Source of the DNA: Octopus vulgaris
Lineage: Eukaryota
Assembly (NCBI GenBank): GCA_951406725.2
Contig: OX597837.1
Span: 7,130,001-7,194,000, forward strand
Direction of reading: 5' to 3'
DNA length: 64,000 nucleotides
This document shows positions 11,326 through 45,307 of this stretch, in pieces. The first letter of the stretch is position 1, and each line of letters starts with the position of its first letter. Below the pieces are notes generated by a model, which was not told the DNA's origin, searched no databases, and was given only the letters and a program-made list of their open reading frames with translations. The position numbers and the translations under genes are program-made.

Positions 11326-11326
11326 T

Positions 11327-11628
11327 ACGAAAGGATGAAAGGCAAAATCGACCTCGGCGGAATTTGAACTCAGAACGTAGCGGCAGACGAAATACCTATT
11401 TCTTTACTACCCACAAGGGGCTAAACACAGAGTGGACAAACAAGGACAGACAACCGGATTAAGTCGATTACATCGACCCCAGTGTGCAACTGGTACTTAA
11501 TTTATCGACCCCGAAAGGATGAAAGGCAAGGTCGACCTCGGCGGAATTTGAACTCAGAACGTAACGGCAGACAAAATACGGTTAAGCATTTCGTCCGGTG
11601 TGCTAACAGCTCTGCCAGCTCGCAGCCT
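11327..11628 (-). mobile_element. Family B SINE dimer (Tx1-tail unit joined to a truncated unit)
   Basis: Junction gaaata|ggtatttcgtctgccg at 11396/11397. Confidence 0.85.
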
Positions 11629-11708
11629 TATGGCTGCTCTAATAATATTAGGAAGAAAATGGATTTCTTGCATAAATAAAACGCCCTGAAATTTGGAAAG
11701 AGTAAATA

Positions 11709-12077
11709 GGCGTAGCAATGGCTGTGTGGTAAGTAACTTACTTACCAACCACATGGTTCCGGGTTCAGTCCCACTGTGTGGCACCTTGGGCAAGTGTCTT
11801 CTACTATAGTGAGTGGATTTGGTAGACGGAAACTGTATGTGTGTGTGTGCGCGCGTGTATACGTTTGTGTGTGTGTGTGTGTTTGTCCCCCCAACATCGC
11901 TAGACAACTGATGCTGGTGTGTTTACGTCCCCGTAACTTAGCGGTTCGGCAAAAGAGACCGTTAGAATAAGTATTAGGCTTACAAAGAATAAGTCCTGGG
12001 GTCGATTTGCTCGACTAAAGGCGGTGCTCCAGCATGGCCGCAGTCAAATGACTGAAACAAGTAAAAGAGTAAAAGAG
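11709..12077 (+). mobile_element. Family A CORE-type SINE, near full length
   Basis: Matches family A consensus, with internal (TG)n and an agtaaaag tail repeat. Confidence 0.85.
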
Positions 12078-12524
12078 TTGATTAAATATACCCCAAGTAT
12101 AAAACTGGTACTGCATTTAATAATAAGCAGATTAGATAATCAAATAGTTAAATATAGTAACCGTTCCACTTGATACTGTGTGGTACATTTCTATTACCAA
12201 AATGGATGGGTGTGAAGATGACGTTTATTGTGGTGGGGGTGATGATTTAGCTGTGTGATTTTGGTCGTGCTTGTGGCCGTCTTCACTAAGTTTCAATATT
12301 TTTAACACCTTACAATTATTTCTACCAGGTGAATATAGCAGCAGAGAATCTCAGCATTGGCTCATCAATTTCTTTTTTTTTTTTTTTTTTCGAAAAGAAA
12401 ATTAAAAGGTGTTTCACTGCTTGCGTTCTTTGCCTTGATTCTAACCAGTTTCAAAGACATTTTTCAGAAGCACCGAGTCATCATTTCTGTATTTTCCTTT
12501 TCATTCCTGTTTTCCCTCTTGAGC

Positions 12525-12709
12525 AATAATAATGCAATAATAATAATAATAATGATAATAATAATAATGGTAATGATAATAATAGTAATGATAATCATGA
12601 CAATGATAATAATACTATAGTATTAGTAGTAGTAATAAAATAGTAATAGTAATAACATTGATAGACAGCAACAGCAATAGTAATAATAATAATAGTAATA
12701 ATAATAACA

Positions 12710-12764
<55 letters not shown>

Positions 12765-12785
12765 GTAATAATAATAATGAAATGA
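12525..12785. repeat. (AAT)n microsatellite
   Basis: Direct inspection. Confidence 0.9.
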
Positions 12786-14469
12786 TTGACAATAAAAATT
12801 AAAAGAATAAATTTATTAGAACGTGTAAAAAATATTAAGACTGATAAGAGATGAGTTTTAATATTTTCCACACGTTCTTACCATTTTCTCGTTTTTTCTT
12901 CTTTTTTTAGTTTCTCCGTCAATCTTTAATTCTTTTTAATATTTTTTTATTATTTGCATTTTTAATTTGCTTTGTTTTACCTTTTTTATGATAATTTATT
13001 GATTGCTTTATAGCCTAAACATCTTTTTTTATACTAGTATTTTTTTGGTTGCTATTAATTTTTGTTTTTCATTTGGTTCTTTTTTTTTTTCTTTGGATTT
13101 TTTTTCCAAGACATTTTCATCTTAGAATTGGGGATTTTAATGCCACACAAGACTACAGCAAATTAGTTCTGTACTAAAATATTCAAAACCAAACATTAGA
13201 TTCTCGTGATTAATTCAAATTTTATTTTTTTTAATTACTATTAATTTCTAATAGTTTTAAAGCAATTCCTCACCGATTGCTGTTGTTGATGATGATTTAG
13301 CTTCAGGTCAACCCTGACTGAACAGAAAATTCAAAAACTTCCAATCATGACCATCCTGTCTTTAGGTAAAAACCTGACACCACATTGTTCAACGTGTTCA
13401 GTTTTTTTAAGACTGCAATTTGTTGGATTTAAAGGAGATTTAGTTGCTGTTTCTATCAGATCAAATGATCAAGACGAGGCTCACATCATTTGACGATTTG
13501 TCAGTCTCTTTTATCTGAGGATGCTTTTCTCGTTAATGTTTTTTTTTTTTTGCGTTTCTGAAATAATTGCTTTGACGGCCATTTTAAGGATTATATTTTG
13601 GCAGGAAGGTAATTCAAAGTTTTGTATGTAGAACACGTATTCAATCAGATAAACCTAAATAGTTTGTTGCGATATGGAATCCCTTTTGCTTTCCTTGTTT
13701 TTGTCTTTTTAAGGGGAAAAAAAGCCAGCATAAAACACAGGATCTTAAAAATAGATGATTGATATGTGTGTGTTTTGTATATGTGAGAGAGGGAGACCGT
13801 GAAAGAGTCTGTGAGAGAAAAAGTGTGTGTGTGTGTGTGTGTGTAGAAGCATGTGTGTGAATGTATGTGTTTTGTGTGCTTTGTATGTGTATTCATTGTC
13901 CTGCATGTGTGTGTGTGTGTGTGTATGAGAGAGAGAGAAGGTCCTGTGTATAAAATCTAAACCCAGGAGGAAGACATGGTACAAAGTGGTGAAAAGAGAC
14001 TTTCGGATGTCTCACTTAGGTAACAAAGGACCAAGATCGTTGGTGGTTCGCAGTACTTGCGAAGACCCTAAAATAAAATTGAGACCCTAAAGACAGGTCG
14101 TTTATGCCTTTACCCCTCTCTCCTCCACAACTTGTCTTCCTTACACCTCTCTCTACTGCTACCACCACTCACTGTATTCTCCTTCCCTCCACATCTCGTT
14201 CTCCTTTGGCACTCTCACCAACTTACCTTCTCACTCACCCTATACAATCCTCTGTATCACTTCCCTTATCTACTCTTCTCTGTAACTTGAGGGTGAGCCT
14301 CCACTCATCTTTACCATCTTCTTAATCTCCTCTCTCCTTTTACAAGTGGGGTAGCCATGTATCTCCCCTACCGAAAGATACTCGTTTCTGTCCCCTATTA
14401 ACTCCAGTCTTTCATCACCCGGCACAAAACCATCTCCTTTAATACTACTCTCAGTTTCAATTGCTGCTT

Positions 14470-14667
14470 ACTTGGTAACCTTACCGATGCTGGTGCCACG
14501 TAAAAGGCACCCGCATACTCTAAAGTGGTTGGTGTTGGGAAGGGCATCCAGCCATAGGAACCATGCCGAAACAGGCAAACCTTCCCGAAGTTCGCTGGCC
14601 TGCTTACTCCTGCCAAACCGCCCGACCCTTGCCATCTTGAAAACCAGGCGTTAAACGATGATGATGA
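14470..14667 (+). mobile_element. SINE/LINE 3' fragment with (GAT)n tail, probably RTE-related
   Basis: ggtgccacgtaaaaggcacc...ggaagggcatccagcc...gcgttaaacgatgatgatga. Confidence 0.5.
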
Positions 14668-14729
14668 ACATATTACACACACAAACACACACACATATTT
14701 TAATTGTGTGGTGATATATACCGTGTGTA

Positions 14730-15250
14730 CATATGAAATGTTTGCGATCATGTATATCCTGCCTTTTTATGAAATGTGTACGATCATGTATATCCTGCCT
14801 TTTTATGAAATGCGTGCGATCATAAATATCCTGCTTTTTTATGAAATGTGTGCGATCATATATATCCTGCCTTTTTATGAAATGTATGCGATCCTGTCTT
14901 CCTGTGAAATGTGTTCGATCCTGTGTATCCTGCCTTTTTATGAAATGTGTGCGATCCTGTATATCCTGTCTTTTTATGAAATGTGTGCGATTCTGTATAT
15001 CCTACCTATTTATGGAATGTGTGCGATCCTGTATATCCTGCCTTTTTATGAAATGTATTCGATTCTGTATATCCTGCCTTTTCAAGAAATGTGTACGATC
15101 CTGTCTTCCTGTGAAATATGTGCGATCATGTATATCTTGTCTTCCTATGAAATGTATGCGACCGTATATCTCCTGTCTTTCTACGAAATGTGTTTTATCT
15201 TGTATCTCCTGTCTTCCAATGAAATGTATGCGATCATGTATATCTTGTCA
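14730..15250 (+). repeat. 36-bp minisatellite with 27-bp variants
   Basis: Unit tatgaaatgtgtgcgatcctgtatatcctgcctttt, ~15 copies; explains ORFs 14708 and 14841. Confidence 0.9.
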
Positions 15251-15257
15251 CTTGTAA

Positions 15258-15665
15258 AGGCGGCGAGCTGGCAGAAACGTTAGCACGCCGGGCGAAGTAC
15301 TTCGCGGTATTTCGCCCGTTGCTACGTTCTGAGTTCAAATTCCACCGAGGTCGACTTCACATTTCATCCTTTCGGGGTCGATAAATTAAGTACCAGTTGC
15401 GTACTGGGGTCGATCAAATCTACTGCTGCCCTCCCCCCAAATTTCAGGCCTTGTACCTTGAGTACAAAGAAAAGAAACGCAAGAGTACCGGAAAAATTAT
15501 GCCTTGCGCTATTTCTTCTGACTCTCTACGTTCCGAGTTCAAATTCTGCCAGGGCCAACTTTGACTTTCTTCCACATCCCTGGTTCTGATGAATCCAAAC
15601 GCCAGTCGATTAACCCCACATTCCCTCAAAATTCCAATCCTTTTTTGCCAAATTAAAAACCATTA
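15258..15665 (+). mobile_element. Two family B SINE copies (ATT-tail type), second degenerate
   Basis: aggcggcgagctggcagaaacgttagcacgccggg...tttcatcctttcggggtcgataaattaagtacc...aaatttcaggccttgt. Confidence 0.8.
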
Positions 15666-15754
15666 TTCTCTCTGCTGATTTAGCAATTCTTTAATTTGAT
15701 CAGTTAAGAAGAAAATTGGTCTTTTTGTGATTCTTTAAGGTACCAAATAAACTA

Positions 15755-16112
15755 TGGTCTTTAACGTGCCATAAGTATGAGTCTTTAACGCACCACGGGT
15801 GCGGGTCTTTAACGCGTCACGGGTGCGTGTGGCTTCAACGCTCCACACGTACGTCTATCTTTAAAGCTCCACGGGTGAGTGTATCTTTAACGCGTCACAG
15901 GTGCGTGTGTCCTTAACACGCCACAGGTGCGTGTGTCCTTAACACGCCACAGGTGCGTGTGTCCTTAACGCGCCACAGGTGCGTGTGTCCTTAACGCGCC
16001 ACAGGTGCATGTGTCTTTAACGCGTCACGGGTGCGCGTGTCTTTAAAGCGCTACGGGTGCGCGTGTCTTTAACGGATAACGGTTGCGAGCGTCTTTAACG
16101 CGCCACGGGTGC
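15755..16112 (+). repeat. ~26-bp GC-rich minisatellite
   Basis: Unit gtgtccttaacgcgccacaggtgcgt, ~13 copies, most homogeneous in the centre. Confidence 0.9.
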
Positions 16113-16689
16113 TTACGAATATACCATACTATAAACTATAGAATGTTTAAGGTACCACAGATGAGTCTTTAAAGTACCGTAGATAGGCTCAGTTCATTCA
16201 GCTTCTAAATATCCGAACGGATCTCATCTGTGTGTGTGCTTACAACAGTATTTGAAATATCTAATTTTAATTCTTAGTTACGCCGTGCTGTGTTTCCCAA
16301 TTCCGACGCTTGCTGTTATTATATTAATATATTTTTGATCTTACAAATATATTCTTCTTTGTTAACAATAACAAACATATTTGCTCCTAATGGTGTTTCA
16401 TATTACAATTTTATCGTTGTTTTTCAAATCATGCAGAGCTAGTTTTTTACACGTTCTTGTTAAATACGTATTTCCTGTCTTGTTTACATGATGGTTTTTT
16501 TTTTCTTTTATTGTTACCTTCACACCTGAAGAAGTCTTGCAGGTTTCGAAAACGTTAATAGACTTCGAAATATTATTGTTCCGAACTGAAGATAAAAGAA
16601 AAAGACGTTTAGAAAAATTTCAATAAAAATAATTAAATTTCAAAACAGTTGTGTCTATGATACATGTTTTAAAAAGAAGAGCTACCTCT

Positions 16690-16757
16690 GCGTGTGTGTG
16701 TGTGTGTGTACATAAAAGCGTATACTCGCAAACGCGTGCGCGAGACACAGTGCGTCA

Positions 16758-16789
<32 letters not shown>

Positions 16790-16832
16790 ATGTGTGTCTA
16801 TATATATGTGCGTATGTCTGTGTGTGTGTATG

Positions 16833-16880
<48 letters not shown>

Positions 16881-16996
16881 AATATATATATATATATGTG
16901 TGTGTGTGTATATATGTGTGTGTGTGTGAATATATATATATATGTGTGTGTGTGTATATATATATATGTGTGTGTGTATATATATATATGTGTGTG

Positions 16997-17027
<31 letters not shown>

Positions 17028-17064
17028 ATATATATGTGTGTGTGTGTATATATATATGTGTGTG

Positions 17065-17097
<33 letters not shown>

Positions 17098-18010
17098 ATA
17101 TATATATATATATATGTGTGTGTGTATATATATATATACATGTTTATATGTGTGTGTATATATATATACATGTTTATGTGTGTGTGTATATATATATATA
17201 CATGTTTATGTGTGTGTGTATATATATATATACATGTTTATGTGTGTGTGTATATATATATATACATGTTTATGTGTGTGTGTATATATATATATACATG
17301 TTTATGTGTGTATATATATATATATACATGTTTATGTGTGTGTGTATATATATATATATACATGTTTATGTGTGTGTGTATATATATATATACATGTTTA
17401 TATGTGTGTATATATATATATATATACATGTTTATATGTGTGTGTATATATATATACATGTTTATATGTGTGTGTATATATATATACATGTTTATATGTG
17501 TGTGTATATATATATACATGTTTATATGTGTGTGTATATATATATATACATGTTTATATGTGTGTGTGTATATATATATACATGTTTATATGTGTATGTA
17601 TATATACATATATGTGTATATGTGTGTGTATATACATATATGTGTATATGTGTGTGTATATACATATATGTGTATATGTGTGTGTATATACATATATGTG
17701 TATATGTGTGTGTATATACATATATGCGTATATGTGTGTATATATACATATATGTGTATATGTGTGTGTGTATATACATGTTTATATCTGTATGTATATA
17801 TAGATATGTGTGTGTATATATGTATGTATGTGTGTGTATATATACTTGAGTGTATGTGTGTGCGTATGTGCGTCTATATGCATGTGTGTACATGTGTGTG
17901 TCTATATACATATGTGTGTGTTTGTATAGATATGTGTGTATGTGTGCATATTTACATAATTGTGTGTTTGTGTGTGTGTATATATATGTGTGTGTGTGAG
18001 AGAGTGAGAG
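16690..18010. repeat. Compound (TA)n/(TG)n microsatellite with an acatgttt higher-order unit
   Basis: Direct inspection. Confidence 0.9.
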
Positions 18011-18320
18011 AATGAAAGGGAGATGTTTATAGAATACATAAATCTACATACTTAAAGTCTTATATTAAAACATATATACATTTCTATTTTCACACACACA
18101 CACACACACACTCAGACTTGTAGTGAATAAACATAATAAGAAAATAAACAGATTGGGGCAGAGACTAAGCGTATAGAGAAAGAATGTAGAACGTATTTCT
18201 GCGCATGCGCACACACTAGAATAAAAGAATGTAAGTTAATCACAACACTTGTTCTATTATCATTTTAATTTTTATATTACTCTACATTTTTACCTTAGTT
18301 CCTCTCAATAACATTGTTTA

Positions 18321-18323
<3 letters not shown>

Positions 18324-18376
<53 letters not shown>

Positions 18377-18930
18377 GTGTTACATTTGTAAGTATACGTA
18401 TATATTATAGGTAAATGCGTATATTGGTCCATGATATATGTGTGTGTCTGCGACATTAGTAAGTATGGTGTGTGTGTGTGTATGGTGTGTGTGTATTGTG
18501 TGTGTATTTTGTGTGTGTGTGTGTATTGTGTGTGTGTGTATTATGTGTGTGTGTATTGTGTGTATTGTGTGTGTGTGTAGTGTGTGTGCGTGTAGTGTGT
18601 GTGCGTGTAGTCTGTGTGCGTGTAGTGTGTGTATGTATTTTTTGTGTGTAGTGTGTGTGTGTGTGCGTGTAGTGTGTAGTGTGTGTGTGTATTTTTTGTG
18701 TGTAGTGTGTGTGTATTTATTGTGTGCGTGTATGTATTGTGTGTGTGTATTGTCTGTGTGTGTATTGTGTCTGTGTCTGTATTTGTATACCACATGTGTG
18801 TATGTGTGTGTGTATTGTCTGTGTGTGTATTGTGTCTGTGTCTGTATTTGTATACCACATGTGTGTATGTGTGTGTGTATTGTGTCTGTACTATAAGTAT
18901 ATGTGTATATATATGTGTGTGTGTGTGTTA
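18324..18930. repeat. Degenerate (TG)n microsatellite
   Basis: Direct inspection. Confidence 0.9.
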
Positions 18931-19099
18931 ACCTTTGTGTCAGGTGTGTAATTTTATTCTGTTTATGAAAATTCAAATCAAAAGAAAATAATCTTAAATA
19001 TAAAGATTCTTGTTAAATAAAAACAATTGTTTTTATTTCCAGTGAGATAAATAAACACTGCAACGAAAAAACGATGACGACTGAAATTGATAGTGTTAG

Positions 19100-20012
19100 G
19101 GTAAGTTGATCGAAGCGACCCCTGTGCACAACGGGTACTTATTTTACCGAGTCCGGAAGGACGAAAGGTTAAGGTCTAAAATGACAGAATTTGTGCTCAG
19201 AACACAAAGACAGAAGAAATACCGCTAAGCATTATGTCGTCCGTTGTTAACGATTCTGCCAGTTTACCGCCTTAATAATAACAATGATAATCCTTTCGAC
19301 CATAGGCACATGACCTGAAATTTGTGGGGAGGGGGTCTAGTCGATTAGATTGATCCCAGCACGTAACTTGTATTTGATTTATCGACCCTAAATGGATGAA
19401 AAGCCCAGTTGAGCTCGGTAGAGTGGAATTTCAACCAAGAGTCTAATGGCGGACAAAATGCCGCTGAGCATTTTAACCGGCGCACTAACGATTCTGCCAA
19501 TTCGTAACTCTAATAAAAATATAAATAATAATTTTTAGTTTTTAGCCCAAGATCAGCAATTGTGAGGAGAGGTGGCCAATTGATTGCATCGACCACCGGC
19601 GTTCCACTGGTACTGAGAGGCTGGGACTATAGGAATTCAGACTTGCATTGTCGACCTGCTTAAAAGGCCTGAAATTTGTGGGAAGGGGCAAGTCAATCAC
19701 ACTGACACCCCAGTATGCAACTGGTACTTAATTTTTCAATCCCGAAAGGAATTTGAATTCAGAACGTAGCGGCAGACGAAATACCTATTTCTTTACTACC
19801 CACAAGGGGCTAAACACAGAGAGAACAAACAAGGACAGAAAAACGGATTAAGTCGATTACATCGATTCCAGTGCGTAACTGGTACTTAATTTATCGACTC
19901 CGAAAGGATGAAAGGCAAAGTCGACCTCGGCGAAATTTGAACTCAGAACGTAGCGGCAGACGAAATGCCGCTAAGCATTTCTCCCGGTGTGCTAACGATT
20001 CCGCTCATCATC

Positions 20013-20044
<32 letters not shown>

Positions 20045-20232
20045 CTTTCCTACTATGAGCACAAGGCCTGAAATTTACGGTGAGGTGGCTATTCGATTGC
20101 ATCGACCCCAGTATTTCACACTTATGAAAGCCAAAGTCAACCTTGGCGGAATTTGAACTCAGAATGTAACGGCAGACGAAATACTGCTAAGCATTTAGCT
20201 CGACGTGCTAACGATTCGGCCAGCTCACCGCC

Positions 20233-20264
<32 letters not shown>

Positions 20265-20652
20265 CCTTTCTACTATAGGCACAAGGCCTGAAATTTTGGG
20301 GGAGATGGCCAGTCGATTATATCGGCCCCAGTACGCAACTGGTATTTAATTTATCGACCCCGAAAGGATGAAAAGTAAAGATGACCTTCGCAGAATTTGA
20401 ACTCGGAATGTAACCGCAGACGAAATACCTATTTCTTTACTACCCACAAGGGGCTAAACACAGATAGGACAAACAAGGACAGACAAACGGATTACAGCGA
20501 CCCCAGTGCGTAACTAGTACTTAATTAATCGACTCCTAAAGGATGAAAGGTAAAGTTGACCTCGGCAGAATTTGAACTCAGAATGTAACGGCAGACGAAA
20601 TGTCGCTAAACATTTAGCTCGGCGTGCTAACGATTCGGCCAGTTCACTACCT
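19100..20652 (-). mobile_element. Head-to-tail cluster of ~8 family B SINE units, mostly separated by (AAT)n
   Basis: Repeated gaatttgaactcagaacgta..gacgaaat..ctaagcattt..gctaacgattc blocks; nesting junctions at 19785/6 and 20429/30. Confidence 0.85.
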
Positions 20653-21656
20653 TAATGGTGATGATGATGAAGCCTTGCAAATACAGTTTTTTTTTCATAA
20701 AATTTAAAAAATCCGAATTAAACAATCAAAACTCAACGCACCAATAACAACAAAAATAAATATTTAAGATATAGTGTGTATGTGTGTGTTTGTTTGTTTG
20801 TGTTTGTTTGTGTATGTGCGTACATATACTTCTCTATGAACATCAGTATGGCTATGTGTTCACTGGGAATTTCTATCATTGTCTTTCCTCTGAGATATTC
20901 CTGTCTTATTCTACAGTCGAATCAATAACCGAAACATTTCTAATCAAATTAAGAATTCTAAAGAAAAAAAAAAAACTATTTGTTTATGTTTACTTAATAC
21001 AATGTGTTTGTTTGCTATATTTGTTTGTTTGTTTGGATTTTTGTTTGTTTGGGTTTTTTTTCTGATCTATTGTGTGGTTTCAAAATATAAACAGAGAAAA
21101 AAATATACGCAAAAATAGTTCCTTTGTTCATGACATGAACTGTATAACAACGAAGATTGGTACGCAGCCACATAGTTCTGAGTTCGATTTCACTATAATT
21201 CACCTTGGATAAATGTTTTTAGCCATATCCTCAGATTGACCAATCAAATGCTGCGTTGTGCTTGCAAGGTGGTGTCATAAAATTCCGACTGTATTGTTTG
21301 TTGAAGCTGGTTAACAATGAAAGTTGTGCACACCGTTTGCAGAAACGGAGCATGTCCCAGTTGATTTCAAATGTGTTTGATGTACTGTTGTGTCTGGGGA
21401 GAGTCATTTTCTTTTTGTGCCTTATAATGTAACACACTCACCGGTAAAATTTCCACTTATTTTTATTTTCCTAAAATTTTCGTTGCGTCTTGCAGCCTTT
21501 TCAATGAGATTTTAAAATTTGCTTCCTATTTATGATGCAAATCAATGATGTAGCTCCAAGTTTACATTGTTATAGGTTTATTCCACACTTTTGTAATATT
21601 ATGCTTCTTATAAGATCTGTTACTATTGTGTTGAATGCGTAAGTCTAAATTATATA

Positions 21657-21892
21657 CAGCAATCCCTTGACTATCGCGGGTGTTACGTTCCCAAACATCC
21701 CACAGAAATAATTAAAATCTAAAAAAATATAAATACCTCTCGACCGCAGAAACTCGTGATATACTGAGGAGTCCACGATATAAATTTATATATAGTGGCC
21801 AGAAAAATCCGCGATGTACTCAGTGCGCAGTAAGTGAACCGCGATGTACTGAGTGTACGATAGATGAATCGCGATATGGCGAGGGGTTACTG
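21657..21892. mobile_element. Tigger/pogo-like MITE (Tc1/mariner superfamily)
   Basis: TIRs cagcaatcccttgactatcgcg / cgcgatatggcgaggggttactg, flanked by TA on both sides. Confidence 0.75.
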
Positions 21893-22017
21893 TATATAGT
21901 AAGGGGGTAGCAAAAAAAGGTCAAAATAATATTGATCAGGAAAAAAGCAAACAGACGACAGACAGACGTAATCATGTGCACGCCCTTCATCACCTGTCAA
22001 CAGAATATTATTGCAAT

Positions 22018-22607
22018 AAGGCGGCGAGCTGGCAGAAACGTTAGCACGCCGGGTGAAATGCTTAGCGGTATTTCGTCTGCCGTTACGTTGTGAGTTCAAA
22101 TTCCGCCAAGGTCGACTTTGCCTTTCATCCTCTCGGGGTCGATAAATTAAGGACCAATTACGCACTAGGGTCGTTGTAATCGACTTAATCCGTTTGTCTG
22201 TCCTTGTTTGTCCCCTCTGTGTTTAGCCCCTTGTGGGTAGTAAAGAAACAGGTATTTCGTCTGCCGCTACGTTCTGAGTTCAAATTCTCCGAGGTCAACT
22301 TTGCCTTTGATCCTCTCAGGATAGATTAAATAAGTATCAGTTATGCACTGGGGTCGATGTAATCGGCTTAATCCGTGTGTCTATCCTTGTTTGTCCTCTC
22401 TGCGTTTAGCCTCTTGTGGGTAGTAACGAAATAGGTATTTCGTCTGCCGTTACGTTCTAAGTTCAAATTCCGCCGAGGTCGACTCTGCCTTTCATCCTTT
22501 CGGGGTCGATAAATTAAGTAGCAGTTACACACTGGGGTCGACGTAATCGACTTAATCCCTTTGTTTGTCTCCTCTATGTTTAGCCCCTTGTGGGCAATAA
22601 AGAAATA
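22018..22607 (+). mobile_element. Family B SINE trimer (Tx1-tail type) with 16-bp TSD
   Basis: TSD agaatattattgcaat at 22002-22017 and 22608-22623; internal junctions at 22250/1 and 22433/4. Confidence 0.9.
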
Positions 22608-22813
22608 AGAATATTATTGCAATTTTGGCGATATACAACAGAATTGCTGAAATTCAGTGGTAACGATAGTATGTGCACATACATGTTTGTATGGTGGGAG
22701 TATTTTACATATTGTAAGGCGGTGAGCTAGGGGCTCTGCTTTGAAGGATTCAGCTGAATTAATCGACACCAGAACTTATTTCTACGGAAACTGCTATATT
22801 ACAGGTGGTGGCA

Positions 22814-22844
<31 letters not shown>

Positions 22845-22847
<3 letters not shown>

Positions 22848-23009
22848 CAGACTTCTTTCTGTTTCCTTCTGCCAGATCCACTCACAAGACTTTGGTCGGC
22901 CTGGAGCTATAGTAGAAAACACTCAGTCCCACTGTGCCACACGATGGGACTGAACCTGAAACCACGTGGTTGGGAAACCAACTTCTTATTCCATAGCTAC
23001 ATCTGCGCC
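22845..23009 (-). mobile_element. Family A SINE 5' half
   Basis: Reverse complement of the head and CORE segment. Confidence 0.7.
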
Positions 23010-23719
23010 TATACGTATTGGTGTGTATAGATTTGCAGCTATATATCCGCACACACGCACATACATACATACATACATACATACATACATACATACATAC
23101 ATACACACACGTGTCTTTGTATGTGTGTGTGAGTGTGTGTGTGTATGTTTGCATGTGTATACGTCCAGAGGAGGCTGTTTGTTTTAAGGCACTGTGTGTG
23201 TATGCGTGTGTATGGAGTGTGTGTGTGTGTGGTGTGTGTGTGTGTGTATGCGTGTGTGTGGAGTGTGTGTGTATGCATGTGTGTGTGGAGTGTGTGCGTG
23301 GTGTGTGGAGTGTGTGTGTGTGTATGCATGTGTGTGTGTGCATGCGTGTGTGCGTGCGTGTGTGTGCATACGTGTGTGTGCATACGTGTGTGTGCATACG
23401 TGTGTGTGTGTATGCGAGTGTGTGGAGTGTGTGTGTTGTGTGTGTGTGTGTGTTGTGTGTGTGTGTGTGTCCCTCTCTGGAGCTTGGTATGTTTAAATAC
23501 AGAAACGCATGTAGCAACGTATATTTAGTTGTAATTTTGAGGCCTTTAATGAGAGCCTAAGGCGGTCTGCCGAAACCTGCGATGTTAACAGGAAATATAC
23601 TACAACAGTAGCTACTACTGCAACAACAACAACAATACTATTTTTAGCAGTATTCATTCTACTTATTACTGATACTAGTAGAATATTTGTGTGTGTATGT
23701 GTGTGTGTAATATCAGTAA

Positions 23720-24338
23720 GGCTCTGAGCTGTGAAAATCGTTCGAGCGTCGAACAAAATGCTTAGTATTTTTTTCCTGCTCTTCACCCTCCGAGATCTAC
23801 TTTACTTTTCATCCTTTGAGGTCGATAAAATAAATCCAAATTAATCGGAATCGATGTAATCGAATTATCTTCCCTCGTCCCTCCCCCCACCTTCCCCGAC
23901 TCCTTCTAAAATTACTGGCCCTGTTTTGTCAAAAAGAGATTATTCTAAGGCAACGCTCTGGCAGAGTCGTAAGCGCGCCAGACAAAATGCTTTGCGGTAT
24001 TTCGTCTGCTGCTACGTTCTGAGTTCAAATTCCTCCTTTCTGGGTCGATAAATTAAGTACCTGTTACGCACTGGAGTCGATGTAATCGACATAATCCTTT
24101 TGACTGTCCGTGTTTGTCCTCTCTGTGTTTAACCCTTTGTGGGTAGTTAAGAAATAGGTATTTCGTTTGCTGCTACGTTCTGAGTTCAAATTCCTCTGAG
24201 GTCGACCTGGCCTTTCATTCTTTCAGGTGTCAATAAAATAAGAACTAGTTGTACACTAAGGTCGATGTAATCGTCTTAACCCCTCCTCTAAGATTGCTGC
24301 CCTTGTGGCAAAATTTGAAATAACATTATTATTATTTA
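23720..24338 (+). mobile_element. Family B SINE copies, including a nested dimer (23948-24335)
   Basis: Junction gaaata|ggtatttcgtttgc at 24156/7; the downstream unit ends in the ATT-type tail. Confidence 0.75.
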
Positions 24339-24469
24339 TTGAGACGGATGGATGTCTGTATTACACATATATGGACACTACTTAGTCTGCTTCTGAGCAA
24401 AACAAGTTCAACAATAAGAAGAGCGATAAGGAATAATAATAATTAATAATAATTCATTCATTAGAATTA

Positions 24470-24507
24470 TGTATGTGTATTCGCGTGTATATATGTATGC
24501 ATGTGCT

Positions 24508-24553
<46 letters not shown>

Positions 24554-24782
24554 TATGTGTGTATATATATATATATATATGCGTATGTGTGTATATATAT
24601 ATATATATATGCGTATGTGTGTATATATATATATGCGTATGTGTGTATATATATATATATATGCGTATGTGTGTATATATATATATATATATATGCGTAT
24701 GTGTGTATATATATATATGAGTATGTGTGTGTGTATATATATATATATATATGCGTATGTGTATATATATCTATATATATGC

Positions 24783-24839
<57 letters not shown>

Positions 24840-25591
24840 TATGTGTATATATATATATATATATATATGCGTATGTGTGTATATATATATATATATATGC
24901 GTGTGTGTATATATATATATATATATATGCGTATGTGTGTATATATATATATATATATGCGTATGTGTGTATATATATATATATATATGCGTATGTGTGT
25001 ATATATATATATATATGCGTATGTGTATATATATATGCGTATGTGTATATATATATGCGTATGTATATATATATATATATATACATATATGCGTATGTAT
25101 ATATATATGCATATGCGTATGTATATATATATGCATATGCGTATGTATATATATATGCATATGCGTATGTATATATATATGCGTATGCGTATGTATATAT
25201 ATATGCGTATGCGTATGTATATATATATGCGTATGTATATGTATATATATATGCGTATGTGTATATATATATATATATACATATATGCGTATGTATATAT
25301 ATATGCGTATGTATATATATATATATATATGCGTATGTATATATATATGCGTATGTATATGTATATATATATGCGTATGTGTATATATATATATATACAT
25401 ATATGCGTATGTATATATATATGCGTATATATATATATATATATGCGTATGTATATATATATGCGTATGTATATATATATATATATATATATATGCGTAT
25501 GTATATATATATGCGTATATATATATATATATATATATATATGCGTATGTATATATATATGCGTATGTATATATATATATATATATATGCG

Positions 25592-25622
<31 letters not shown>

Positions 25623-25691
25623 GCGTATGTGTATATATATATGCGTATGTGTATATATATATGCGTATGTGTGTGTATATATATATGCGTA

Positions 25692-25724
<33 letters not shown>

Positions 25725-25880
25725 GCGTATGTGTTGTATGTATATATGTGTGTGTGTATCTGTGCGCGTGTATATATGCATATGCTTGTGTGTACATATA
25801 TGTGTATGCATTTGTGTGTGTATATGCGAATGTACATACATGTGTATATGCGTGCGCCCGTATATATATATATATACTCT
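24470..25880. repeat. 1.4-kb compound microsatellite (TA)n-GCGTATGT
   Basis: Direct inspection; source of the 380-500 aa Y/I ORFs. Confidence 0.95.
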
Positions 25881-26141
25881 TTTCCACTGATGCTTCAAAC
25901 TTACCACTGAGTGTGTCTGTATACTTGAGTGAGTGTATATTTATTTGTGCGTCAGGTCGAAGGAATAATTGGAAGGAATAGATAGAATTCTAATTAAGTT
26001 AATTTTCGAAGTGTTGAAGTAACAAATTCTATGAATATTTCGACATTGTTGCCATGTTTGACTGGAGGGCAAATGTGTTTAAAGTTGTTTGTCTTTAATA
26101 CAAGGTTCAATAACTCGGCATCTATTGTAGTCGGCGCCAGC

Positions 26142-26190
<49 letters not shown>

Positions 26191-26594
26191 GCACGTATGT
26201 GTGTATGGAATAAGAAAGCGCCCATATATATATATATATATATATATATTAGTTTCATGTGTGCGTATGAATATTATTCGTTTATCAGTGTGTAATACGC
26301 AAGCACGTATATCTGCGCATTCGTGTTTATGCGTATGCATTTGTGTATGTGTGGGCATATATATTTGTTTCTACACAAACAAAAGCGAGTGAATGAATTG
26401 ATTCGAGCGGACGGGCGAACCAGTACCAAAAGAGTGCAGCACAACAGAACAGTGGTCACAGTGCGTTTAAAAATGTTGTGGATGAATTTTGTCATCGAAA
26501 TATTTAAGCCAAATGGGTACCTACCAGTTGACATCCCCCACCTCATACCCCACCTCCGATCTCAAGGAAAGAAGTGTGGGCACCAGCACTGAGT

Positions 26595-26912
26595 TTGCTG
26601 GAAGTGTTTCAAAGACGGAAGAAATGCCGCTAAGCATTTTGTCCGGCGTGCTAACGATTCTGCTAGCATACCGCCTTTTTCATCTTGTTTAAATTGGTTT
26701 CAAATGTTGGCACAAGGCCAGCAATTTCGTTGGAGGGATTAAGTCGATACGCCAACTCCAGTGTTCGACTGGTACTTATTTTATCGACCCCCAAAAAACA
26801 TGAAATGCATAGTGGACCTCGGTGGAATTTAAATTCGGATCGTAAAGACAAACGAACTGCCTTTTGCTAAACATTTTGTCCTGCGAGCTCGCAATTCTGC
26901 CAGCTCGCCACT
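26595..26912 (-). mobile_element. Degenerate family B SINE copies
   Basis: gaaatgccgctaagcatttt..gctaacgattctgc and ggcacaaggcc..ggtacttattttatcgaccc. Confidence 0.7.
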
Positions 26913-26981
26913 TTAAATATGAACTCCGAAGAGTCATACATACCCCGGTTGAGAACCAATGTTGTAGAAAGTGGCTATGCC

Positions 26982-27197
26982 TATTTCTTTACTATCCACA
27001 AGGGGCTAAACACAGAGGGGACAAACAAGGACAGACAAACGGACTAAGTTGATTATATCGAATCCAGTGCATAACTGGTACTTAATATATCGACCCGAAA
27101 GGCAAAGTCGACCTCGGCGGAATTTGAACTCAGAACGTAACAGCAGACGAAATACCGCTGAGCATTTCGCCCGGCGTGCTAACGATTCTGCTAGCTC
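26982..27197 (-). mobile_element. Family B SINE (Tx1-tail type) monomer with ~21-bp TSD
   Basis: TSD gttgtagaaagtggctatgcc (26961-26981) / gttgtagaaagtgactatacc (27198-27218). Confidence 0.85.
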
Positions 27198-27699
27198 GTT
27201 GTAGAAAGTGACTATACCGTGAACAGCGGGTGGTTGATTGAGACATTAACGAAAACATTTAGAACAGCCCTTAAACCTCTTGGGTCACCCAGACCGATTC
27301 ATCGACCCATGTGATACAGGCTGAGAGGATTTTGACGCCGATCCATCGGCCCAAATGACACAAGCTGAAATGACATTGAGACCGATCCATCGGCCCGATG
27401 AAACAAATGTGAAATGGTTGGTTTTGAAGTGTTATAGCTAATCAGAGATCGTCTATCAGTCGATTTATCTGAATAGATAAAAAAAAATTGGGGTTTTTTG
27501 GCTATACTTAACAAAACATTGTGTCTCAAAAGAGTTAGCAAGAAGGGGCAGAATAAGAATCTGTAAATGACCCTCATTCACAATGATAATGTCGAAGTAC
27601 ATAAAGATTTGGCAGCAAATCAGGAAAACGACATATTGGACTTGTCAGTGGTTCCACCGTACAATCTGCTCCGATTTCCACCTGTTTGGTTCAGTGAAA

Positions 27700-27845
27700 G
27701 GCAATCTTTAGAGACTGGCAACCAGTCGGTTTCGACGACGCGGGTCCCAGTTGATTCGACCAACGGAACGACTTGTTCGTGACCTTGACGTGCGAGTGGC
27801 TGAAGCACTCAGCAGACACGCGTACGCTTCACGTACTTCTCACAA
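27700..27845 (-). mobile_element. Family C SINE 3' fragment
   Basis: Reverse-complement similarity to 3825-3950; another fragment lies at ~57030-57140. Confidence 0.65.
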
Positions 27846-28089
27846 CGTTAGAAAGCCGATCTGAGAGAAAAATTGGCTGTTATTTCTTGCATGTATAACG
27901 GCCTGCTACAGTTGTTTGCTCGGCGGGTCATGGTTTTCTAGCGTTATTGTATGCTGCGTTTTATTTTGACGATTAAAACGTGGAAACAATGGTGATTGAT
28001 TCGATGAGATTTATTTGAAACAATTAGGAACAATGAATTAATCTACAATGCACAGCACTCTAAAAACAGCCTGCCCCCGCATTTAAATA

Positions 28090-29270
28090 AATGTGTGTGT
28101 GAGAGAGAAAAACAGATTGTATATGTATGTATATATGTGTACATATATATATATGTAAATATGTGTGTATGAATGTGTGTATATAGATATGTGTGTGTAT
28201 ATATATATATATGTATATATATGTGTGTATATATGTGTGTATATATACGTATATGTGTGTATATATATATGTATATATGTGTGTATATATATATATGTAT
28301 ATATGTATGTGTGTATATATATGTACATATGTGTATATACGTGTGTGTATATCTATATAAGTATATATATATGTGTTTGTGTATATGTGTGTGTATATCT
28401 ATATAAGTATATATATGTTTGTGCGTATATGTGTATATATATATAAATATATATATATATGTTTATATATATTACTAGATATATCAATATGTAAATATAT
28501 ATATACATGTATATATGTATGTTTATGTATATATATATATGTATGTTTATGTATATATATATATGTATATGTATGTTTATGTATATATGTATTTGTATAT
28601 GTAAGTATATGTGTACATACATTTGCTTAAACGCAAACACGCATACACACATATACATATATATATATAAGTATATTTTCTTGTAAACAAATATATAAAC
28701 ATATGTATATACGACGAAGACAGAAGGAAAGACTCTGTGTATGTGTTTGAGTGAATAAATGTGAATAAATAATAGACAAAATTCCGAAAATGTCGGCCAA
28801 AAAATATAAAAAGAAGCCGAAATGTTTCTTCCTTATAATTGATGTTTTACTGTTGTTTTTGCCGCTTAAAGTACTCCACTACAGGAGACAAATAAAAGCA
28901 TCTTGATATCCAACAGTCTCACACATCGCAGCCACGCAACCAAAGAATATATATATACATACATACATACAGAAACAGGCGGCTATACAGCGTTATTCTA
29001 ATTCCATAGACATACGGATGGGGATGACGAAGACACACATTCCTCCCATGGACACATTGAAATTATATGCACTGTACACATTTATAAACAAACATACGCA
29101 AACATAACTCAGACGTGGGCATGAACATACATACATCCATGTGTGTGTGTGTGCATGTAAGTAGAAATACAAATATATACACACACACATACATAGATAT
29201 ATATATATACACACTTATATATACATATATATATATACACACATATATACGCATATATATATACATACAT

Positions 29271-29301
<31 letters not shown>

Positions 29302-29516
29302 CACACACATATATATGTACACACACACACATAGATATATATATACACACACTTATATATACATATATATATACACACATATATATACGCATATATATAT
29401 ACACACACACATATATATATGAATAAGTTAATGTGTGTATGTATGTATATTTATACATTTATATAGGTATCTCTATATATTTAGGCGTGTACACACACAC
29501 AAACACATATATCTAC

Positions 29517-29550
<34 letters not shown>

Positions 29551-29615
29551 GTAGGTATGCACTTACATTAATACTAATACGTATATACATACACACAACG
29601 AGAGAGAGAAAGAAA

Positions 29616-29652
<37 letters not shown>

Positions 29653-29690
29653 CGTGTAAATATATATGTATACACACACACATGAATATT
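28090..29690. repeat. (TA)/(TG)/(CA) low-complexity tracts
   Basis: Direct inspection. Confidence 0.85.
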
Positions 29691-30211
29691 CAAAATGTCA
29701 GCCACAATAATAATAATAATAAATAACAATAATAATATAGCAGCGTTGACGAAAACAATGAAAAACATGAAGAAGAAAAAAAAACCCAATTTCCAACGAT
29801 AACATAAATAAATACATTCTCTCCTCTCTTCAATACTTTAATTGTTAAATCAACAATGTATAAATCTAATATTTGGTTTGTCAACGTAAAACTCTGTTGG
29901 CTGTCGTCCTCCCCATCGTTTTCTAAATTAATATATATTAGTTTTATTTTAAATAATGAATTTCTATAATTCGCAGAAGTAATTCACATGTAAAGCAATA
30001 GGTAGGTTACTATTAACATACATAATTCTGTGTGTGTAGGTGTGTGAGGGAGAGAGAGAGGGGGTGTATATTTATGAACACAATGAATATAAATATATAT
30101 ATAAGTACACATATACACATACACGTATGCATGCGTATTTTCGCTTGCGTACATCGTGTATATTCTTGTATATATTTTCCCCTGTGTGAGCGTATTTAAA
30201 TATCTATGGTA

Positions 30212-30275
<64 letters not shown>

Positions 30276-30278
<3 letters not shown>

Positions 30279-30442
30279 GAGAATTCACAAATAGCAAAAG
30301 ACGAAGTCAGATGGTGTAGGCAACAAAGAGATGTATTAATATAACGCTCGGGAAGTGAACAAGTCTTTAACGTTTCGAGCCGACGCTCTTCCACAGAAAG
30401 GAACACAGAAAAGAGGAGAAAAAAATAAAGAGAGAAAATACC

Positions 30443-30473
<31 letters not shown>

Positions 30474-30625
30474 TAAAGACAGGTGGTGTAGACAACAAAC
30501 AGATGTATTAGTTTAACGCTCAGGAAGTGAAAAGGTCTTTAACGTTTCGAGCCTACGCTCCTTCACAGAAAGGAAACAAGGAGAGAAAATAAAGAATGTG
30601 TAGTGACTAGCGATCTATCATGGCG
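30276..30625 (-). mobile_element. Two tandem Penelope-pLTR-like repeats, each with a hammerhead-like motif (third copy ~61622-61810)
   Basis: Minus strand cttt-CTGTGGA-a-GAGC(gtcg)GCTC-GAAA-CG-TT-aaag at 30365-30400; variant copy at 30537-30572. Confidence 0.6.
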
Positions 30626-30659
30626 AATATATTGTTGTATTTAGGGACGGTCATATTGC

Positions 30660-31272
30660 CAATTTGGCCATTGAGAACACATGCACTATATATTTGGTGT
30701 TCACTTGCTTCAGCTTTATTCCATATTAATTGTATTTCGTAACACTTCTGTGGCCTCATCAGTGGTCCTTTACTTCCTTCTTTCTTTATTTTTTGTGTCT
30801 CTCCTTCCTAATGACCTGCCATTTTGTATTCCTGTTGTATGTCTTTATTTGCGCATGCGTATACCCCTCTGTGTGTTTCTATGTTTAGTAAGTATGTGGG
30901 GGGGGCGAATGTGTATGGTACCTGCATTATCAGTATCCCCTGTTTATTCACGTTCGTTTAATTTCTTTTAAACTTAATTTATTATATTTTGTTTATGTAC
31001 ATAATTAATGAATTCCATTTATTTATCTGTCTATAGTATTAGTTTATTATTATTAATTCATGGGATTTTATTCTGTCGTAGGTTGTGGTGTATGTGGAGA
31101 GGGGTGCTAGTGTTCCATTCTAGTTTTCTATTTAGGCTAGATTTATCTTCTATTATGCGTGTAGCTTCCTTAATTTGTCTAAGCGTTGCGTCCGTTCTTG
31201 TGATGCCTCCGTTAGATTTTGTTTTATGTATGAATGAGCTACTCCACGTCGGACACCGGAGTGGTATTTGAT
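30660..31272 (-). pseudogene. Penelope-like retroelement 3' remnant (GIY-YIG endonuclease C-terminus plus 3' repeat)
   Basis: Minus-strand translation of ~31207-31080 gives TDATLRQIKEATRIIEDKSSLNRKLEWN, matching the R-x-I-x-EA-xx-I...LN-x-K-x-EW tail of PLE GIY-YIG domains; degenerate hammerhead at ~30721-30768. Confidence 0.7.
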
Positions 31273-31280
31273 CACTATAG

Positions 31281-31863
31281 GGCGGCGAGCTGCAGAATTG
31301 TTAGCACGTCGGGCGAAACGCTTAGTGGTATTTCGTCTGTCTTTATGTTCTGAGTTCAAATTCCGCCGAAGTCGACTTTGCCTTTCATCCTTTCGGGGTC
31401 GATAAATTAAGTACCAGTTACGCACTGGGGTCGATATAATCGACTTAATCCGTTTGTCTGTCCTTGTTTGTCCTCTCTGCGTTTAGCCCCTTGTGGGTTG
31501 TAAAGAAATAGGTATTTCGTCTGCCGCTACGTTCTGAGTTCAAATTCCGCCGAGGTCGACTTTGCTTTTCATCCTTTCGGGGACGATTAAATACATACCA
31601 GTTACGCATTGGGGTCGATATAATCGACTTAATCCGTTTGTCTGTCCCCTCTGTGTTTAGCCCCTTGTGGGTTGTAAAGAAATAGGTATTTCGTCTGCCG
31701 CTACGTTCTGAGTTCAAACTCCGCCGAGGTCGACTTTGCCTTTCATCCTTTCGAGCTCGATAAATTAAGTACCAGTTACGCATTGTGGTCGATATAATCG
31801 ACTTAATCTGTTTGTCTGTCCTTGTTTGTCCCCTCTGTGTTTAGCCCCTTGTGGGTAGTAAAG
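31281..31863 (+). mobile_element. Family B SINE trimer (Tx1-tail type)
   Basis: Junctions gaaata|ggtatttcgtctgccg at 31510/1 and 31684/5. Confidence 0.9.
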
Positions 31864-32252
31864 ATTAAAAATTCTTTGAGAATATGTAAGAGTTCAAACC
31901 ATGCCTCTATTTTATTATTTTTTATCTCAAAACATTAACATTATTTCTATTATACTTTATCCTGGTAAATCTTCTTCACCGATGATATCATATTGCGCCC
32001 GTGGGACATTTACACACCAGTTGTCGCAAACCAAGCGATCAAGTACTAGATTTCTTTTTAGCTATTTTTTTAAATTTAGAACCTTTACTTAAAAACATTC
32101 TTATAAAATGTTTTCTGTTGTTACAGAATAAAAGCACGATATTTAATTCCATTTTATAACACCAAAAATATTTGGCACTTTACGTTTCTATTGGCGAATC
32201 ATCCGATTTTGCCTCCCACTTCTCTCTCTCTCTGTTGTTCTTCTTCAGTCTT

Positions 32253-39872: not shown

Positions 39873-40261
39873 TCACTGACAGAAGAGTGACTTTGCCTAC
39901 CGTACTACGGTTTGGACGCGTTTTCTTCCCGGTAAGAGTTTTGCTGTGTTGTTAATTGTTGAATTCCTACTACTGAAAATTTGCCTTTAAACGTTGCTGA
40001 ACTGTCTTGTTCTCCGGTTTTACCGGGAAATAATTGAATAATTTCTTACCGTTGAACTGTTAGCCACTGTGGCTTTTTATTTACGTGACTATATATAGTC
40101 CTGCCAGACTATTTTCGTGCCCCTCCCCCGAATGGGGGTGGGAATTGGAATTTTTGAACTGCTTTTTTGAACTACTTTGGAAGAAAAACTTTCTATAGGT
40201 TTCCCAGTTTCGTGGGAAACCAATATTCGTAATTTTTGTGTTGTCTAATTTCAACAGAATA

Positions 40262-41658
40262 ATGTCTGTTGAAATTATTCACGAAAGTAGTGCTCTTGAG
40301 GAGAGCAATGTTAAAAAATTTTCTGAGGTAGCCGCAGTGGCTACCGAGAAGATTGACATCGATGTCAACCAGCTCGTCGAGCTATTTAAAAGAATGCAAG
40401 AGGAGGGTGGTGATGTTAAAATATCACCCTCCGCCAGTATCGTGGAGACCGAGAAGCGGACCGTAGTGTTTAAAACTTTCTGTCCACAAAGCAGAAGGTT
40501 CAAACACTTTGAAAAAAGCACCATCGAGAAATGCCTGTCCCCGATTTGGAAGGACATCGTGTACGTCGCCAGGGGACGGGCATATGGCACTGTGGATGTC
40601 CGCTTCTCGGGGGAAGAAATGGCCCGCGGGCATTCTGTGAACCCCCTAAAAACCAAGGAGGTGGTACTTTTTCCAAGCTATAGGGGACGCAGGTCGTCCC
40701 GGGTCAGGATTGTAGAAGCCCCGCCGGACGTAGATCCGGTAGAGGTAGTGGCCGCCCTGTTATATAAAAGGGCGGACAAAATAAAAATACTAGAAGTAAC
40801 ATGCTCTACCCCTCGATTTTGGCTCGGGCGTAACATTAATATATTAATTCAAGGAACAGCGGAGGACCTGCAGCTCCTTCCTGAGAGGGTGCTCGTGGGC
40901 GAGAACGTAGCCCTCAGGGTACAGGTCGAAGGCCGAAAACCCACCTGTTACGCCTGCAACAAAAAGGGCCACATTCGTGTAGACTGTCCAGACAAGCAAA
41001 AGAAACCGCAGACACCAGGCCCCTCAGATAATAAAAAAGTCCCTACCCTTGCAAACACACCTACCCCTACAAAAACAAAAAATCCCACTCCTGCTGTTAC
41101 GGTGCCAACCCCAAAACAGACTGAAGAAAAAACCCAGCCCTCGCACTCACAAACCCCTACACTATTAAAACCTCCCACCCCCTAAAAACTGCGGCGCCTA
41201 CCGAACAAACTATTGCTACCACAGACGATACCATGGAGGTATCAGAGGGGGGATTTACACCAGTTCGTAAAAGAATTCGTGCAGCATCCCCGTCCACATC
41301 CCCTACAAAAAATAATAAAAACAAAGACACACCACAGACACGGAAAAAAAAATCCCGCTCAACTGGCCCAGAAAAAGAAGACAAAAAAGAAAATGAACTC
41401 ATATTAATTGAATTCGACACACAAGACAAATACATAAACGATATTGTGGTTCAGCATCAGTCAGCAAGACTGTACAACAAATACAAAGATCGAAATAGAC
41501 ACGCGTGGATTGCGGAAACAACGTTCAAACAATTAAGACAGACACCCAAACGCCATCCGGCATATCGCGAACTTGCCGGACTATCTGAAGAAAGAGGAGA
41601 AAGAAGGGGCCCACAAACGTGTGGTGAGGTCGGCCCCCACCTCTCCAACGAAATGTAA
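40262..41658 (+). CDS. LINE ORF1 (gag-like nucleic-acid-binding protein), one frameshift near 41180
   Basis: CCHC knuckle CYACNKKGHIRVDC followed by a Pro/Thr/Lys-rich linker; ORF 40238-41185 continues in the frame of 41233-41658 across a C-run. Confidence 0.8.
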
Positions 41659-41678
41659 GTAGAACCTTTACTTTTGTA

Positions 41679-44600: not shown

Positions 44601-45079
44601 TAGCCTGGCAGTGTTTCCGTGCGGCTTTACCTGTTCGCGACAAGCTGTCAAGGCACGGTAGTGCCGTCTCGCCGACATGCCCGCGATGTGAGCAGGATAG
44701 GGAGACCGTCTTGCACGCATTCGTGGAGTGTCCGGAGTTATCGGGACTTATAGCTTTTGTAGAACAACTGTTGTCAGTGATGGGAAGAGTACAGCTATCA
44801 GCTGAGTCTATCATCGAGATTGTGCCGCCCCCTTTCCTTAACAGGGAAAGAAAGGCTTGTTTTTTCTGTGTAGTAGCCATACTGAAAGAAACAGTATGGA
44901 AGACGCGTACGAAAGGTATAGTGACAGGCACCTTTGTCTCCGGCCAGGGGTTGATTAACTTTTTTAGTTACCACCTCAGTAGCAAAATCAGGCTGGAGAA
45001 GAGGTGTCTGTCACGAGATATGTTTGTGAAAAGATGGAAGCCTGTGGCATACAAGATGGGTATGTTTGGCACCAGGTAA
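41679..45079 (+). CDS. LINE ORF2: AP endonuclease + reverse transcriptase + C-terminal Zn finger, one frameshift near 43685-43700
   Basis: APE motifs LNVRGL, ETK, GDFN, LDRI, TDH; RT motifs KSPGLDG, FRPITLLN, LDQSKAFD, RQGCPLS; AYADD encoded at ~43724-43738 in the downstream frame; GGLG and CPRC..ETVLHAFVEC. Confidence 0.92.
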
Positions 45080-45307
45080 GTGTGACCGGATCAGAAAGTA
45101 AAGGTTCTACCCGGATGGCTGGGTGTCCGTCCTTCGACATGATCATTAATATTTTTAAACATTGCCTTCGTAAAATTCATTGTTTATAATCTTATCCGTA
45201 ATTTCATTCGAAAATTGTAACTGTGTTAAGCTACTTCACCCTTTATATTTGTCTGTCCTTGTTTGTCCCCTCTTTGTAAATGCCTAAATGGCAAATTATA
45301 TGAAATA

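Follow-up and report, generated by a model that had tools for sequence, protein, structure and literature searches.

An octopus SINE with a LINE-type tail that may nest at one exact base within the heads of its own family

Retrotransposons that insert into copies of themselves are known from Zepp of Chlorella, a long interspersed nuclear element (LINE) which builds arrays in this way and which, unlike a short interspersed nuclear element (SINE), is autonomous. Closer to the case presented here are systems in which insertion follows a fixed site. SINEU-3 of crocodilians, mobilised by Tx1 LINEs, entered a Mariner element by successive insertions at one fixed position (Kojima 2015, PMC4494074). 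In R1 and R2 of Drosophila, annealing of the cDNA to the cleaved target produces precise 5′ junctions (Stage and Eickbush 2009, PMC2718515); in the blood clam, tandem arrays of SINE multimers have been ascribed to unequal recombination (Martelossi 2024, PMC11481361); and satellites derived from SINEs are treated in PMC10702118. Octopus vulgaris has 13 recently active L1-Tx1 families and SINEs make up about 12% of its DNA (PMC13282606; the word 'nest' does not occur in the accessible part of that paper). We consider here a stretch of 64,000 nucleotides (nt) from this animal (contig OX597837.1, positions 7,130,001 to 7,194,000 of the forward strand), which we call the window and number from its first letter. 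It contains copies of a SINE, family B, some of which bear a LINE-type 3′ tail (the T tail) that repeatedly runs, without any intervening base, into the interior of another copy.

With the unit at 31281 as query, 27 pieces of family B were found in the window, together with one match in a LINE. Eleven of the 27 carry the T tail, the twelfth match to which is the 3′ end of the LINE. Eight of these 11 tails are joined, by their natural last base, directly to nt 47 of another family-B copy (nt 48 when numbered on the full-length copy at 22020); two of the other three (22607 and 26982) stop at the same base and are followed by a target site duplication (TSD), and the end of the third (31864) is degraded. 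An earlier note on this DNA had reported eight such junctions, each with a T-tailed unit upstream and no second head downstream, and we recover every one of them where it was placed, with both properties. The note had also divided the downstream tails into T type and a single ATT tail. The T type stands, in four units (22251, 22434, 31511, 31685), but the second class is really two, an ATT 'A' type (19785, 20429) and a different 'C' type (24157), and the unit at 11396 has no tail, as it ends at nt 115. There are 18 sites of this kind among the 128,000 strand positions of the window, whence the probability of finding eight or more in 11 tails is 3e-29 if the tails are independent and 5e-10 if only three events are. 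These values are evidence of non-randomness, not of recurrence, because inherited junctions would yield the same figures. The threshold of more than 20% of copies used for target-specific SINEs (PMC4494074) is exceeded, in this window, by eight of the 11 tails and at six of seven loci. Two other origins were set aside: a deletion by microhomology of the GAAAT common to both sides, as free tails stop at the identical base, and a rolling-circle or template-jump origin, as the upstream unit is T-tailed in all eight cases while the downstream tails vary. The loci are collected in the table.

Table. Features of the window discussed in the text
Feature	Position	Strand	Remarks
T-tailed unit 11627-11397, then another unit running from nt 47 to nt 115	11328..11627	-	beside a mariner fragment
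T-tailed unit 20004-19786 running into A-tailed copy 19785-19655 at nt 47 (mixed array)	19655..20004	-	
Solo A-tailed copy	20030..20232	-	two private non-CpG head variants in common with the 20651 head
T-tailed unit 20651-20430 running into an A-tailed copy with terminal (ATT)n at nt 47 (mixed array)	20255..20651	-	
Trimer of T-tailed units 22020-22250, 22251-22433, 22434-22607	22002..22623	+	
T-tailed unit 23949-24156 running into a C-tailed copy at nt 47 (mixed array)	23949..24335	+	
Monomeric T-tailed copy 27198-26982 at a non-SINE site	26961..27218	-	21-bp TSD, 19/21 identical, starts GG(T/C)AT
Trimer of T-tailed units 31281-31510, 31511-31684, 31685-31864	31263..31864	+	
Family-A SINE interrupted by the LINE directly behind an A-box-like segment	39835..45677	+	TSD 39857-39872 / 45308-45323, 15/16 identical
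Full-length L1-group (Tx1-like) LINE	39873..45309	+	Pfam domains

The head of the 22020 copy has an A-like box at nt 11 and a B-like box at nt 73, so that nt 47 falls between the two. With these boxes, a 3′ tail shared with a LINE, and TSDs of 16 bp and 21 bp at two of the four T-type loci lacking an ATT tail that were scanned, the element has the make-up of a SINE2, that is, a tRNA-derived SINE, while ARAGORN and Rfam gave no match for the tRNA-like head itself. The tail is shared with the full-length LINE of the window, whose 3′ untranslated region is identical to the T tail over 29 of 30 nt in an ungapped alignment that remains in register to the 3′ end. Both tails can form a hairpin in the same register (4 bp, 5-nt loop), two pairs of which have changed on both sides. 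According to Pfam, the first open reading frame (ORF1, 40199-41658, in two frames) of the LINE has a zinc knuckle, and the second (ORF2, 41628-45079, in two frames) an apurinic/apyrimidinic (AP) endonuclease, a reverse transcriptase (RT) and a zf-RVT domain. This is the architecture expected of a Tx1 LINE in the L1 group. Its closest solved relative is human L1 ORF2p (6.6e-54, with R2 at 7e-19), and its nearest named protein relative comes from a cuttlefish (47%, covering 45% of the query). It is a putative member of the Tx1 clade; no named Tx1 reference was found among its close matches. The 'Tx1-like' label that the earlier note had given to the tail thus acquires a basis in sequence through this match. 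Because the LINE differs from the SINE's partner both in the distal part of the tail and in target, it is a relative of that partner and not the partner itself, which was not found; it may represent a second lineage that targets SINE heads, seen here as one copy. Both of its ORFs contain frameshifts.

The junction is not confined to the window. Reads and contigs from four sequencing runs (X21 and X22 from organism A, X4 from organism B, X6 from organism C) were aligned to the monomer 27198-26982, not to an array, so that the junction appears as a joint going back within the unit; 10 reads (X21) and 217 reads (X22) were aligned, out of 12.9 million records each. The joint between tail end and nt 47 (from 27154 to 26980, two letters being ambiguous) is present in all four runs, under three organism labels. 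It is supported by one read in X21, by two reads in X22, by at least one contig in X6 and by at least 27 contigs in X4, where it is the best supported among the 15 joints listed (298 more are unlisted); variants shorter by one or two bases add at least 15 contigs in X4 and at least one in X6. In X4, 1078 loose-end records depart from the unit at nt 47 towards a tail, against 1167 that depart at the head start, these being contig records and not copy numbers; the nt-47 loose end is not among the six loose ends listed for X6. X22 further contains, on window positions 26981-27047, a tandem repeat of about 80 nt (48 and 19 reads) made of the T tail and 13 nt from nt 47, which is a SINE-derived minisatellite and is not listed for X21, with its 10 reads. 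Neither an empty site nor a polymorphism in unit number was seen in these runs as aligned to the monomer. A separate observation in X4 and X6 is a joint on opposite strands between SINE positions (window 27140/27198; at least 13 and at least nine contigs), suggestive of a recurrent inverted arrangement.

We favour, as a reasonably probable explanation, mobilisation of the T-tailed SINE by a Tx1-like LINE that has its target in the SINE's own head, with growth by nesting. The preferred site of this partner would begin with GGTAT(TT), the word found at nt 47 of the family's own head. To judge from the junctions, a resident copy, whatever the type of its tail, would be nicked on the bottom strand before nt 47. 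Reverse transcription would then proceed from the tail, probably aided by read-through RNA carrying nt 47 onward, a suggestion made because the tail has no T4 terminator: the T4 run is absent from seven of the 11 T units, so that read-through multimer RNAs are to be expected. The top strand would be nicked 13-21 nt downstream, a distance suggested by the TSD lengths at other sites, and the overhang, that is, nt 47 to about nt 65 of the SINE itself, would anneal within the cDNA and prime the second strand, the donor head being discarded. As the TSDs are 16-21 bp long, such an overhang would find its match in the cDNA of the SINE itself, and this would account for the seamless join; since it would anneal inside the cDNA, the missing second head would require no special truncation point. 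The logic of this annealing is the one described for R1 and R2 (PMC2718515). The product would be a host head, a young core and tail, and the remainder of the host, longer by one unit of 184 nt, and each round would restore both the A-box/B-box promoter and the target. Some arrays would afterwards lengthen by local duplication or move as blocks, and read-through RNAs and local duplication probably do contribute to arrays. The first T-tailed SINE might also owe its origin to a template switch at nt 47, LINE RNA being left for SINE RNA; the competing models would then overlap. A wider picture, which we put forward tentatively and think somewhat less probable than its negation, is that the SINE took over its tail from a Tx1 LINE with an endonuclease target inside the SINE's promoter and so entered an autocatalytic, seamless cycle of self-targeting, older SINEs with other tails being turned into T-tailed templates; Tx1 lineages may even have divided up SINE heads as targets, because the second LINE sits in the head of another SINE family.

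Insertion into an older host predicts an old head, a young core and tail and an old remainder, and this is the pattern of the three mixed arrays. Counted as differences from the T consensus, with five subfamily-diagnostic columns removed, divergence there is 19/122 in the head, 16/253 in the inserted core and 33/250 in the downstream core: the core is younger than the head (p 0.007) and than the downstream core (p 0.010), which do not differ from each other (p 0.53). At these arrays the comparison of upstream with downstream divergence that the earlier note had proposed comes out with the younger core upstream. Heads are not inherently faster-evolving than cores, as can be seen in solo copies (head 52/314, core 107/619) and in the first units of T-only loci (22020, 27198 and 31281; head 8/129, core 14/267). 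Moreover, nt 47-66 are near consensus in the hosts that were hit (5/60 differences against 36/140 in solo copies, p 0.004), as is required by either cutting or pairing at that word. At non-SINE sites, the TSD of the 27198 monomer begins with GGTAT (window frequency 6e-4), and the 7-letter target word (2.5e-4) lies 18 nt upstream of the 31281 trimer head, a trimer for which no 3′ TSD was found.

These ages bear on the alternative with which the earlier note had closed, namely that several pre-formed multimeric masters (T-T, T-A, T-C) were amplified as blocks, with little or no ongoing nesting. We hold it to be distinctly unlikely. It would leave unexplained why upstream cores are younger than both their own heads and the downstream units; the two A-tailed downstream units have no derived variant in common once the diagnostic columns are removed, and the first units and the last units of the two trimers have none or fewer than two. 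At least three masters with an identical junction would in any case need a site-specific origin. Amplification of blocks does accord with the trimer 22020-22607, which has a single, perfect outer TSD of 16/16 bp (22002-22017, 22608-22623) and no age gradient (core 7/92, 11/91, 4/92), and with the ATT-like 5′ flanks of mixed arrays, as expected if blocks were moved by a partner of the ATT tail. The clade of downstream units that the note had set as a refuting test is neither seen nor rejected (p-AU 0.21) in a star-like tree, with no starred branch, of 21 of the 22 units, the 11396 unit being too short.

Several further observations weigh against targeting by the partner's endonuclease. The hairpin of the tail is weak and not significant against shuffled sequences (z -1.7 to +0.3); the LINE of the window has a different target and an only partly matching (distal) tail, with one copy to witness its own targeting. 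When CpG sites are removed, the contrast between core and downstream core falls to p 0.096 and that between head and core to p 0.018. Mixed arrays number only three, of which 20004 adds little (head 3/32). The head at 11627 looks old (8/65) and the unit downstream of it young (2/69), the TSD at 22002 begins with AGAATAT, a poor fit to the target word, and a private variant is common to the first and middle units in each trimer. Finally, C at nt 64 is found in six of eight downstream units against four of 14 others (p 0.07), and the middle units of both trimers have three variants in common, which hints at inherited junctions.

The last two points lead to the most serious rival, although we regard it as improbable: a dimeric master acquired the junction on one or a few occasions, so that nesting is real and the exact base is inherited, not cut. 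Either a read-through RNA (tail plus nt 47 onward) would pair with a resident copy at an unspecific nick, or a multimer donor would convert that copy at the DNA level. R1 offers a precedent for read-through pairing (PMC2718515), and the T units without terminator, the bias at nt 64, the near-consensus nt 47-66 of the hosts and the youth of the 11396 unit, cut short as it is, all suit this rival, which likewise predicts the old-young-old pattern. What speaks for targeting instead is that the units at 20651 and 20429 carry the same host-like variants immediately past nt 47 (four shared, three at CpG), a degree of sharing reached by only eight of 231 unit pairs; that the words starting TSDs at non-SINE sites resemble the target; and that the tail plus 13-nt repeat of X22 is laid out like an insertion, truncated and with a TSD of 13 nt, at this very base. 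The 20651 head also has two private variants in common with a neighbouring A-tailed copy, and at the variable nt-64 column first and second units agree in all three mixed arrays. Taking inherited junctions and endonuclease targeting together, nesting into older copies is likely; the origin of the base-exactness is less settled between them. This is also how far the earlier proposal of site-specific, target-primed insertion with a homology-resolved 5′ end may be followed: old-young-old arrays, three downstream tails, TSD-start words and a tail-sharing LINE lodged in a SINE head argue for it, up to the point of assigning the specificity to an endonuclease rather than to pairing of read-through RNA.

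Tandem duplication at the DNA level, by slippage or unequal exchange, we consider very unlikely as the builder of the arrays. It could lengthen dimers, yet cannot create the first junction at the exact 3′ end of an element, nor lodge a T tail within copies of the A- and C-tailed types. In its favour, neighbours in both trimers have private variants in common, the unit at 31511 is similar to 31685 over its 5′ part and to 31281 towards the 3′ end, the minisatellite of X22 derives from the tail, and unequal recombination has been proposed for bivalve SINE arrays (PMC11481361). Growth unit by unit, which the earlier note had extended to whole arrays, therefore may not hold for every unit, given these shared private variants and the single TSD of the trimer 22020-22607.

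Returning to targeting by a Tx1-like partner, we can place it among the described systems. Like SINEU-3, the octopus SINE would be moved by target-preferring Tx1 LINEs to fixed sites in a transposon, with tandems read as sequential insertions, but the target of SINEU-3 is a Mariner and not its own family, a TSD is visible between its tandem copies, and it has an snRNA head and a poly(A) tail (PMC4494074). AP-endonuclease LINEs such as Tx1/Tx1D, Keno, Kibi and Koshi occupy defined positions in repeats or in genes for small RNAs; the window LINE, presumed to be of their clade, has their architecture and is located in a SINE head, whereas the accessible text names no SINE head as a target (PMC4494074, PMC4640811). 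With R1 and R2 the likeness is that target sequence in the RNA anneals at 3′ and 5′ junctions, with 14-bp TSDs through downstream top-strand cleavage; the difference is that their target is 28S rDNA and that R1 cDNA cannot anneal after downstream cleavage (PMC2718515), whereas the overhang proposed for the octopus SINE is part of the element. The blood clam arrays, likewise from a mollusc, are SINE multimers in which a single complete head is followed by repeats with truncated heads and one TSD encloses the whole, but their inner tails are truncated, whereas octopus units all end at the natural 3′ end and have hosts with other tails (PMC11481361). Site-targeting is itself known, and self-targeting is a new twist on a Tx1-mobilised system of the SINEU-3 type; in the main texts searched, which did not include repeat databases or the original octopus SINE paper, no SINE is described as aiming at the head of its own family. 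If correct, nature would offer here a SINE with its own head as the target of the partner LINE, the perfect 5′ joins being a result of the nick stagger, and the case would point to a compact site-specific insertion system. It would provide thousands of genomic replicates for the study of second-strand priming in AP-endonuclease LINEs, SINE families could exchange tails in this way, and it would call for caution in the annotation and dating of repeats in SINE-rich genomes, arrays being mosaics of old and young sequence.

The setting of these loci is AT-rich, microsatellite-laden animal DNA, where no host gene could be identified among the long ORFs of the window. An exact search with the T tail had no match in metagenome, prokaryote-genome or viral contigs, and a scan for related loci gave a single distant locus (31% identity) that was not used. 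The window has no other piece of ORF2, and minus-strand frames at 59442-60563, judged by eye from the ORFs, resemble another LINE fragment. A fragment of mariner transposase (10807-11327, plus strand, with a Mos1-like HTH match at 10807-11127) reaches exactly to the start of the truncated SINE unit at 11328, and no TSD was found at this border. Short internal deletions, several of them between short direct repeats, are present in SINE copies at 19748, 24030, 22561, 27097 and 31638. On the minus strand of 26611-26912, a C-tailed copy is followed directly by another family-B head that ends after about 64 nt. A tandem array of a short, GC-richer unit beside a family-A SINE piece (33940-34875) gives rise to long repetitive open frames. 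Finally, on the minus strand of 19090-20651, five family-B loci in the same orientation form a chain, several beginning inside the (ATT)n tail of the next, which makes this a second, microsatellite-directed type of clustering.

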